Of a stretch of DNA of 46,065 nucleotides, positions 1,496 through 1,955 are shown in pieces. The notes below the pieces were generated by a model, which was not told where the DNA came from, made no database searches, and saw nothing but the letters and a program-made list of their open reading frames with translations. Made by a program: the position numbers and the translations under genes. Every line of letters starts with the position of its first letter. The first letter of the stretch is position 1. This stretch comes from Escherichia phage Kati. The stretch lies in sequence record PP925833.1; one strand, given 5' to 3'.

Positions 1496-1640
1496 CTTTT
1501 GCGTTGTTGGGGATAACCAGATTAACCGAATCCTTGTTGTTGGGGAATAACCAGGTCCACCTCGCCTGATGTGGCTAAAAGCAGGCACATAACAGCTAAG
1601 TATTTTCAACCAGAGAGAATCCTTAGCGTTGTGGTGAATG
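1496..1640. repeat. Three related direct repeats (GAATCCTT..GTTGTTGGGGATAACCAG type) upstream of the 144-aa gene
   Basis: Copies at 1496-1519, 1529-1557 and 1613-1640; first two are 37 nt apart and abut the RBS of the - strand gene. Confidence 0.45.
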
Positions 1641-1955
1641 CGGCTCAGCGCACGCGGGTTAAGGTTGAGGCTGACAGTCGACCTTCTGTGGATACCCACC
1701 CGCCTGGTGTGCAACCTTCGCCAGGCACCGGGAGGCACCCGGCACCACAACTTTATGCTGTGTGTAGTCTTGGCGGTACCAGCTTGTACCCTTGCTTCCG
1801 GCTGGTACCGTCCTTTTTACAAAACAGAGAAGAGCATCACCGGACGACGGGCTCATAACCCAATCCATCCGGGCGGCAGTCACCGCAGGTGTTCTTCTCT
1901 GTTTTGTGGAGAAACTAACCGACCTTGCAGGGTCGATATGATGAGGAGCAGCAAA

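Follow-up and report, generated by a model that had tools for sequence, protein, structure and literature searches.

Escherichia phage Kati carries, directly upstream of its early-left operon and ~0.9 kb downstream of its cI-type repressor gene and a pL-like promoter, a GC-rich block (1496–1935) in which we favour, with some reservation, a prophage small RNA (sRNA) gene: it lies downstream of the repressor, carries the core of the host sRNA RprA and would encode an Hfq-type trans regulator that mimics RprA. All coordinates refer to the whole 46,065-nt sequence of this complete lambdoid genome of the SfV/e14 type (PP925833.1; the window), in which base 1 is the ATG of the repressor gene. The predicted sRNA of ~190 nt lies at 1626–1818 on the plus strand, its ends being set by homology with sRNA-17, an RNA of another prophage that was mapped by rapid amplification of cDNA ends (RACE). 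Its gene consists of an STnc100-type multi-hairpin domain, an RprA-core stretch and an intrinsic terminator, and the predicted RNA is thus a chimera of an STnc100-type body and an RprA-core/terminator unit.

The link to RprA is a 16-mer, TGCTGTGTGTAGTCTT, at 1756–1771 on the plus strand, a candidate seed that is identical to the conserved core UGCUGUGUGUAGUCUU of the host RNA, an Hfq sRNA under the control of Rcs and Cpx. The match was found through a full-text motif search; RprA, printed as ...GAAACAACGAAUUGCUGUGUGUAGUCUUUGCCCAUCUCCCACGAUGGGCUUUUUUU, contains the 16-mer in two published sequences (PMC5606850, PMC7311995). Within RprA the 16-mer belongs to the single-stranded part of a 47-nt processed form, which is stable, active alone and enough for a second mode, as yet unexplained, in which narP is repressed. 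The identical 16-nt core stands 0–2 nt before the terminator in the phage units, as in processed RprA (AAUUGCUGUGUGUAGUCUU followed by a hairpin and a U-run) and in rprA of many genera, where the 16-mer is directly followed by a terminator. The terminator of the window (1772–1818, plus strand) has a 13-pair hairpin at 1772–1812 and a U-run at 1814–1818 in minimum free energy (MFE) folds. A scan of one genome per species gave the exact 16-mer with a terminator in ~63 chromosomal rprA-type loci of more than 20 genera, which shows breadth and not a conservation rate because the scan required the 16-mer. These loci occur in Escherichia, Citrobacter, Enterobacter, Pantoea, Erwinia, Serratia, Yersinia and Pectobacterium, and also in Dickeya, Hafnia, Edwardsiella, Proteus, Morganella, Providencia, Xenorhabdus and Sodalis, and their upstream (5′) RprA sequence is otherwise highly divergent. 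The same scan gave five prophage-type loci, and the leftover matches, in unrelated phyla, were without terminators. Outside the core, the window differs from RprA: the 5′ stem-loops are absent, the terminator sequence, genomic locus and promoter are all different, and the central pairing region (~nt 30–70; ...CCCCUGAGUGAAACAACGAAUU) is missing, CACCACAACUUUA standing before the core and sharing only ACAAC with it. A search of 1000–2500 gave no match to the RprA family (RF00034; threshold 70 bits) at E ≤ 10, and phiES15 reached 41 bits. Why RprA should preserve its 16-nt core throughout the order Enterobacterales, when the pairing sites that are known lie in other parts of the molecule, is a question on which the phage copies bear. 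The 3′ core is reported to pair with ricI; we do not use this as evidence.

Units of this kind recur among viruses. A search of IMG/VR with the 16-mer pattern returned at least 120 stretches representing 109 distinct contexts, and in 106 of the 109 a hairpin and T-run start 0–2 nt past the 16-mer, whereas the antisense control gave 12 of 109 and a control 1.5 kb away gave 5 of 106. There are at least 106 distinct versions of the RprA-core and terminator unit in IMG/VR; their terminators comprise 67 distinct sequences (mean −18 kcal/mol), and their 5′ bodies are of several unrelated types, including some short forms. A cI-like repressor open reading frame (ORF) is located upstream on the same strand in 87 of the 101 loci with enough upstream sequence, its start lying 0.6–3.5 kb before the 16-mer. 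The core was also examined in seven phages that had been found by BLAST on other parts of the block and not on the 16-mer. Their alignment shows a single-stranded TGCTGTGTG(T/A)AGTCTT, with AGTCCT in SfV alone; the 16-mer has one variable position in five of the seven and the window and one further in SfV, and the flanks and terminators diverge. The terminator sequence is wholly replaced in homologues, with the pairing always kept and followed by CCTTTTT. That phages have independently retained the same 16-mer argues that the 16-mer itself is a functional site.

Our literature searches turned up no account of RprA-core copies in phages, and the sharing of the exact core by a large repressor-adjacent phage family is, as far as we found, undescribed. 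We put forward tentatively the possibility that temperate phages of Enterobacterales widely carry an RprA-core sRNA just downstream of the repressor and codirectional with it, so that lysogens impersonate processed RprA and tap its envelope-stress, biofilm and conjugation circuit. If functional, these units would represent a new molecular mimicry, in which a class of temperate phages bears the core of a host stress sRNA, and would tie traits under the control of RprA, such as RpoS, curli/biofilm and the regulation of conjugation, to the carriage of a prophage. DicF (RF00039) of the Qin/Kim prophage is comparable in being an sRNA of an early operon beside the immunity region, with a short seed and then a terminator, but its seed differs, and the window scores 19.4 bits over 1759–1813 (E 0.28) against a threshold of 48. 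Its terminator, which we take to be of the GGCGGUAUCAG... type, resembles GGCGGUACCAG... in the window, and some viral contigs join the RprA core to a terminator that is presumably nearly identical to that of DicF.

The body upstream of the core was assigned by its match to the Rfam family STnc100 (RF02076), which aligns at 1598–1821 on the plus strand over its full length (model positions 1–206 of 206; 43.4 bits, E 1e-7), just under the curated threshold; a prior reading of the DNA from its letters alone (the sequence-only reading) had missed any RNA family match. SfV, ST64B and phiES15 also give sub-threshold matches of 35–41 bits. The structured domain (1628–1751, 124 nt, plus strand) is closed by the helix GUUGUGGUG (1628–1636)/CACCACAAC (1743–1751) and includes the internal hairpin CCGGG-AGGCA-CCCGG (1728–1742); the closing helix and the internal hairpins are conserved in the seven-phage alignment. 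The window shares with STnc100 the closing helix, UGGUGAAU..., an identical CACCGGGAGGCACCCGGCACCA hairpin and the 3′ terminator, and both are prophage-borne. However, canonical STnc100 copies lie in the late region near Q, stx, esterase and holin genes, whereas the window copy lies early-left, by cI, and its pre-terminator single strand is the RprA core, which the STnc100 consensus lacks. The copy of STnc100 in enterohaemorrhagic E. coli was confirmed by Northern blot, and the STnc100-related PasD sRNAs of lambdoid prophages were discovered by Hfq RIL-seq, the ligation and sequencing of interacting RNAs.

Covariation was assessed with a covariance model, R1, that was built from nine diverse members and gave 52 matches among 100 loci, with 36 distinct sequences analysed; its match in the window spans 1626–1771 (148.9 bits). 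The covariance-model alignment was used instead of MAFFT/RNAalifold, which put the last hairpin out of register. In the 36 sequences, 88.8% of the cells are paired, compared with 27–48% for slid partners, and 17 of the 27 pairs have changed on both sides (104 cells), which none of 500 shuffles reached, in an alignment that is fitted to the model and favours the structure. Tandem arrangements were also seen, in which an RprA core and terminator are followed ~60 nt on by a second STnc100-like body (R1 57–61 bits; contigs L024 at 5807–6034, L028, L053, L074, L070 and L101).

The sequence-only reading had described the block as markedly GC-rich, and the GC content is 0.51–0.58 across 1501–1900, compared with 0.35–0.45 in 1001–1500 and 0.38–0.43 in 2201–2500; for 1496–1935 as a whole it is 0.57–0.58, against 0.35–0.45 in the flanks. 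Among the inverted repeats that it listed, CGGTACCAGC/GCTGGTACCG was recovered at 1774–1783/1801–1810, and both CCTGG..CCAGG and CCGGG..CCCGG are hairpins of the MFE structure; an additional one with 25-nt arms (1819–1843/1883–1907) was absent from its list. The folding and covariation check that it had proposed was run, and the block folds far better than shuffles, with covarying helices in both the sRNA body and a downstream structure, module C. The 371-nt stretch 1590–1960 folds at −162.4 kcal/mol, whereas its dinucleotide shuffles give −122.5 ± 5.4 kcal/mol (z = −7.45) and none of 100 folds as well. The suggestion of a structured RNA therefore holds for most of the block, namely for 1626–1818, through covariation and the mapped homologue, and for 1819–1907. 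The suggestion of a cis-regulatory leader applies in part, to 1819–1907 only, where the yfdP operon has in its leader another structured RNA, conserved and distinct from the sRNA. The block is best described as three adjoining plus-strand RNA modules (1503–1595, ~1626–1818 and 1819–1907), and BLAST shows a mosaic whose pieces travel independently among phages. The first module occurs by itself in the Klebsiella phages Kp4884-1 and Kp4886-1 (1503–1595, 87% identity), 1557–1955 is present in SfV and SfII, 1770–1955 is found in mEp460, cdtI and Stx2c phages (95–97% identity) and 1612–1919 in ST64B (78% identity), and phiES15 keeps the central part ahead of different downstream genes (kil, gam). 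The elements are of known kinds, one being a prophage sRNA of the type of STnc100 and sRNA-17 and the other an RNA of an operon leader.

An RNA from the same slot has been mapped experimentally. sRNA-17, from an mEp460-like prophage of E. coli K1 strain RS218, is 193 nt long by 5′/3′ RACE, was detected on a Northern blot and is commoner in stationary phase; phosphorylated ArcA bound a 250-bp fragment upstream of it in vitro, its deletion raised yfdP by 2^6.6 (~95-fold) and yfdR as well, and no Rfam homologue was reported (Sun et al. 2020, PMC7719688). We mapped the published primers onto phage mEp460, in place of the RS218 prophage, where they fall at 2355–2548, the plus sense of which is equivalent to window 1626–1818. 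The 3′-RACE primers have the sense of the strand that encodes yfdP, to which both the 5′-RACE primers and the Northern probe are complementary. What was detected is therefore an RNA codirectional with yfdP, from CGTTGTGGTGAATGCG to GGTACCGCTCTTTT, and the sequence in print is its reverse complement. sRNA-17 and the window RNA occupy the same slot between a cI-type repressor and yfdP, begin with the same closing-stem 5′ sequence (CGUUGUGGUGAAUGCG, at 1626 in the window), end in a near-identical terminator (GGUACCGCUCUUUU, the homologue ending at 1818 in the window) and are followed by the same module C. They differ in the interior of the body, which is unrelated (R1 gives 27.5 bits on mEp460, and BLAST identity with mEp460-type phages begins at 1770), and in the pre-terminator strand, which is AGCCACUGCUUU in sRNA-17 where the window has the RprA core.

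From the sequence we infer trans-acting RprA mimicry. The window RNA would be an Hfq-type regulator, with a presumed dependence on Hfq, and may be trimmed by RNase E to a ~65-nt 3′ form, as RprA is. The copied core would share the targets of the RprA 3′ core, whatever these are, making the RNA a phage mimic of a host envelope-stress sRNA, and the sRNA terminator would also halt transcription before the early-left lytic and recombination genes. A precedent for a prophage sRNA that is released by a terminator and acts on a host target of RprA is StxS (Sy et al. 2020, PMC7547250). StxS, the pR′–tR′ short transcript of Stx phages, is likewise set by a terminator within an operon, is processed into a 3′ fragment and acts in trans on a host target common to RprA, DsrA and ArcZ. 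Compared by architecture, it differs in being a late leader, whereas the window RNA belongs to the early-left arm, and in pairing with the activation site of rpoS, a pairing that is not predicted for the window RNA.

Several points weigh against this interpretation. The window copy is a predicted RNA: it is the homologue whose ends and expression were observed, and since sRNA-17 is without the 16-mer, its phenotypes cannot be transferred to the window variant; its effect on yfdP may moreover be a cis or cassette effect. The STnc100 match does not reach the gathering threshold of 47 bits, and the family is absent from the gathering-threshold scan of the window. No sigma-70 consensus promoter was found near the RNA on the plus strand between 1000 and 2100, so that pL, once the phage is induced, may be its only source. 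The statistics on terminators and repressors derive from loci chosen for the exact 16-mer and cannot measure its conservation. The 16-mer is about half accessible in full-length MFE folds (mean unpaired probability 0.49), and it could be a recognition element for Hfq or RNase E instead of a seed. RprA pairs with the rpoS leader, csgD, hdeD and the narP start through the region 5′ of the 16-mer, and because the window is without that region, the known RprA targets may not be hit. Within the phage genome, no site complementary to the 16-mer was found within 3 mismatches, and RNAduplex against the 186 translation-start regions of the phage gave nothing standing out. A GCAGCA at 1948–1953, between the yfdP Shine-Dalgarno sequence and ATG, is complementary to the UGCUGU at the start of the RprA core and is paired with it in the 371-nt MFE fold; these 6 bp, which are relevant to the rise of yfdP on sRNA-17 deletion, are too short to claim.

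A different explanation, which we regard as rather doubtful, is that the block works mainly in cis: the terminator and structured RNA would insulate yfdP–int from immunity/moron or pL transcription, and the short RNA would be a by-product, as lambda 6S is. Its position between the repressor/moron region and the first early-left gene is fixed in every annotated phage, even with other downstream genes (kil and gam in phiES15), and mEp460 and like phages keep the terminator and module C with the body interior swapped. The rise of yfdP (~95-fold) and yfdR on sRNA-17 deletion agrees with insulation, as do the pL-like promoter (681–709) and perfect boxA (818–829) upstream on the same strand, which fit regulated read-through; the boxA might govern such read-through on induction. 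However, a pure terminator needs neither a constant 16-mer ahead of 67 different terminator hairpins nor identity with the core of a host trans-acting sRNA, the STnc100-type domain has covariation of its own, and StxS shows that terminator by-products can be true regulators. The cis barrier is compatible with the sRNA reading and may be the primary role. We consider it improbable that the repeats and palindromes are instead a DNA-level array of operators, to be bound by the phage's repressor or by some host regulator (ArcA, for example), serving the divergent 144-aa gene and the early-left operon. Both direct repeats of the block are conserved, phosphorylated ArcA bound the fragment upstream of sRNA-17, and a hairpin at 1595–1627 contains CTAAG/CTTAG, the operator half-site of this phage. 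Yet a search of the block that allowed 3 mismatches found no operator ACTAAG-N4-CTTAGT, clusters of full AACTAAG half-sites are confined to the operator region OR and to 642–697, and the GTTA spacings in the repeats (9 and 27 nt) misfit the 11-nt phasing of ArcA boxes. The palindromes, moreover, covary as RNA helices, unlike DNA sites. The array proposed in the sequence-only reading could apply at most to 1503–1561 and may be confined to the two direct repeats there.

The remaining explanations appear far weaker. It is very unlikely that the block is a real or decayed ymfH-type protein gene, frameshifted here, with its GC richness and long frames as the trace of coding. The K-12 gene ymfH (b1142, 103 aa) is annotated over the homologous e14 stretch on the same strand, PGAP/RefSeq places a 'frameshifted hypothetical protein' over the equivalent of window 1631–1941 in strain D6 (identical genome), and several phage records annotate hypothetical proteins over the block on one strand or the other. 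The sequence-only reading had seen no credible ORF and proposed a check for a decayed coding sequence. Long open frames are present (95 aa, 226 aa running into yfdP, and 161 and 114 aa on the minus strand) and are annotated as genes elsewhere, and the check did find the ymfH-type annotation, but none of these frames is conserved across homologues. Two frameshifts, which explain the PGAP frameshifted-pseudogene call, are needed relative to e14 YmfH although the DNA is ~97% identical, and both fall within hairpin loops. No frame is open across 14 homologues, the longest among all six frames of Kp4866-6, phiES15 and phiNP being at most 82 aa; the strand of the annotated ORFs varies from phage to phage; the would-be ORF crosses a terminator whose sequence and length are swapped wholesale between relatives; and YmfH has no Pfam or NCBIfam family match. 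This analysis of frame conservation was used instead of a codon-position test, for which 16 variable sites among 7 distinct close relatives were too few. Base-pair covariation accounts for the conservation, and the reading of the block as a decayed gene is largely refuted by the sequence comparisons. We give equally little credence to a processive antitermination RNA like HK022 put, which would fold on the nascent pL transcript and cause read-through of terminators. In both settings a lambdoid phage that has no N carries a structured RNA downstream of an early promoter: the block is multi-hairpin and GC-rich and lies downstream of the pL-like promoter in phages without a recognisable N gene, and canonical STnc100 copies also lie inside long phage operons, downstream of Q. 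Against this, blastn (word size 7) with the whole HK022 genome gave a best E of 0.14, with E ≥ 6.6 for the putL/putR regions; put is ~70 nt with two hairpins directly after the promoter, compared with 124 nt here at ~900 nt from pL; and a strong terminator follows the domain, where the homologous RNA ends. A type III toxin–antitoxin-like repeat RNA (ToxI-like) serving the 144-aa gene is hardly credible. The direct repeats, ~34 nt apart and read on the minus strand, do lie immediately upstream of this small gene, but there are two copies only, of ~80% identity, the 144-aa protein is of the ECs1072 family with no ToxN-type or other Pfam match, and the repeats also adjoin RprA-core units elsewhere.

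The sRNA reading extends to E. coli K-12, which carries a copy of the unit in e14. The block is ~97% identical there and lies between ymfI/ymfJ and xisE, and ymfH (NC_000913 1,201,069–1,201,380, minus strand) overlies the sRNA with its terminator as well as module C, so that ymfH is probably no protein gene. The e14 RNA would end at the U-run after GGTACCGCC, with a processed 5′ end at or near AUGCUGUG. Published data hint at expression of this copy. An abundant 35-nt K-12 RNA has one end at the 5′ edge of the 16-mer, though it is printed on the opposite strand. ymfH is a member of the e14 induction regulon, and a ymfH over-expression clone triggers a retron toxin. The annotations of ymfH, the PGAP 'frameshifted pseudogene' calls and the assorted phage 'hypothetical proteins' would thus call for correction, and two published results can be read anew: the printed strand of sRNA-17, and the triggering of the retron toxin by ymfH, which may be an RNA effect.

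Downstream of the terminator, the yfdP leader contains module C (1819–1907, plus strand), a three-way-junction RNA in which a 20-pair stem, P1 (1819–1838/1888–1907), encloses two hairpins, P2 (1840–1872), with the loop CUCAUAA at 1852–1858, and the variable P3 (1873–1886). In 15 diverse sequences 95.3% of the cells are paired, compared with 41–51% when slid, and six pairs have changed on both sides (19 cells), which none of 500 shuffles reached. The sequence CGGGCTCATAACCC (1848–1861, in P2) is identical over 14 nt to positions 29–42 of the E. coli initiator tRNA metZ, the shared part of the anticodon arm comprising three G-C pairs and the CUCAUAA loop; 14 shared bases were reached by 1 of 20000 shuffles. 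In e14 the anticodon-like loop is changed to UUAAUAA. Module C has no Rfam match, and, as far as we found, a three-way-junction RNA with an initiator-tRNA anticodon arm has not been described. A tRNA or transfer-messenger RNA was rejected, since ARAGORN was negative on the window and 8 related loci except for the true tRNA-Asn of Klebsiella phage Chronis. Chronis has a copy of module C with a 7-bp outer stem at 3003–3075, directly after this tRNA and between a Q-like gene and the lysis genes, a late leader. This second, late-operon context indicates that module C is mobile by itself. The Chronis copy has CCTGA/TCAGG in place of CCGGA/TCCGG, a compensatory change. Lambda leaders carry RNase III sites, which the 25-bp duplex just ahead of the first gene recalls, and the tRNA-like loop suggests a decoy; our guess is that module C is an RNase III-type processing site or a tRNA-like decoy. 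The decoy, which might act for example against anticodon-arm nucleases, would be a further and less likely layer on top of the tentative RprA impersonation. Between module C and yfdP lie a small hairpin, CGACC/GGTCG (1920–1935, plus strand, from sequence reading and the fold), and the Shine-Dalgarno sequence GAGGAG (1943–1948, plus strand) ahead of the ATG at 1956. The hairpin is substituted by other hairpins in ST64B, Kp4866-6 and phiNP.

On the upstream side, between the start of the 144-aa gene and the 5′ module of the sRNA, a repeat search identified two direct repeats, DR1 (GTTGTTGGGGATAACCAGATTAACC, 1503–1527) and DR2 (GTTGTTGGGGAATAACCAGGTCCACC, 1536–1561), of 25 and 26 nt and ~80% identity. 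These are the first two of the three repeats that the sequence-only reading had listed; both are real and conserved in homologues, in this register, with a spacing of 33–34 nt where 37 nt had been given. The third (1613–1640) did not hold: because it is 76–78% alike over 17–18 nt and overlaps the closing stem of the sRNA (GTTGTGGTG), we treat it as a chance resemblance. The DR1/DR2 pair also precedes the RprA-core unit in two unrelated viral contigs (L093 and L098), and the two repeats (1503–1561) are probably promoter or regulator sites of the sRNA unit. TTAACC-18-AATAAC (1522–1551) and AAGTAT (1598–1603) were hand-picked as promoter candidates, are weak and are not claimed. The 5′ module (1557–1595, plus strand), a hairpin of CCAC (1557–1560) and GTGG (1571–1574) followed by AAAAGCAGGCA, is conserved in SfV, e14 and phiES15, and in the 'short-form' units of many IMG/VR contigs it (ACCACCGAGCCTGATGTGGTGAAAAGACAGGCA...) runs straight into the 16-mer. 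A further plus-strand hairpin, GCTAAGTATTTTC/GAGAATCCTTAGC (1595–1627), identified as an inverted repeat and in the MFE fold, abuts the sRNA body; ST64B and phiES15 retain a hairpin of different sequence at the equivalent place. Its arms GCTAAG...CTTAGC hold the operator half-site CTAAG, but with N19 spacing instead of N4, and mEp460 retains one arm half (GGCTAAGTG) 9 nt ahead of the mapped 5′ end of sRNA-17. In F1055 (~2600–2700) and Kp4866-6 (~2800–2930), tRNA T-arm-like pieces, CTGGTTCGATTCCAG and GTCCGTTCAATTCGGAC, lie upstream of the sRNA body; these are uncalled by ARAGORN and may be tRNA remnants.

The block is set in a conserved gene order. The cI gene (1–627, plus strand) encodes a protein with helix-turn-helix and peptidase S24 domains and is followed by the pL-like promoter TTGCCA-17-TAGATT (681–709, plus strand), which is covered by AACTAAG operator half-sites; those at 642, 655 and 691 overlap this promoter region directly past the cI stop codon. 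The remaining copies in the window are two at OR (45979 and 46028) and one at 8211, with no others; OR occupies the opposite end of the window and includes ACTAAGattaCTTAGT at 46029–46044. The boxA, a perfect rrn-type GCTCTTTAACAA (818–829, plus strand), lies ~100 nt downstream of the pL-like promoter and is preceded by a hairpin (797–816) that on the minus strand makes a terminator, complete with T-run; the boxA after this hairpin suggests Nus-factor antitermination in a phage without a recognisable N gene. A small plus-strand ORF of 68/73 aa lies between boxA and the 144-aa ECs1072-family gene (1053–1487, minus strand), whose ATG at 1487 makes it divergent from the block. The 144-aa gene converges on the small ORF with an overlap of 29 bp, and terminator-like hairpins lie on the minus strand at 971–946 and 816–797, so that its transcript would be antisense to the 68/73-aa ORF. 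Downstream of the block, the plus-strand early-left operon consists of yfdP (ATG at 1956), yfdQ, yfdR, yfdS, yfdT, xis and int. The order cI, pL-like promoter, block and yfdP to int thus gives the block the slot of the start of the lambda leftward early operon, and the identical order is annotated in SfV, ST64B, F1055, phiNP, mEp460, phiES15 and K-12 e14. A stretch matching the block is present in 2782 of 5426 complete E. coli genomes and is full-length in 1626. The sole Rfam family above threshold in the window is IS009 (RF02111; 11707–11905, minus strand, 220.9 bits against a threshold of 117). C4 antisense RNA and isrK are both below threshold in the Rfam scan of the Kati window; SfV (1226–1414) and ST64B (1409–1597, minus strand) carry C4 (80–82 bits) together with isrK (64 bits) on the cro side of the immunity region.

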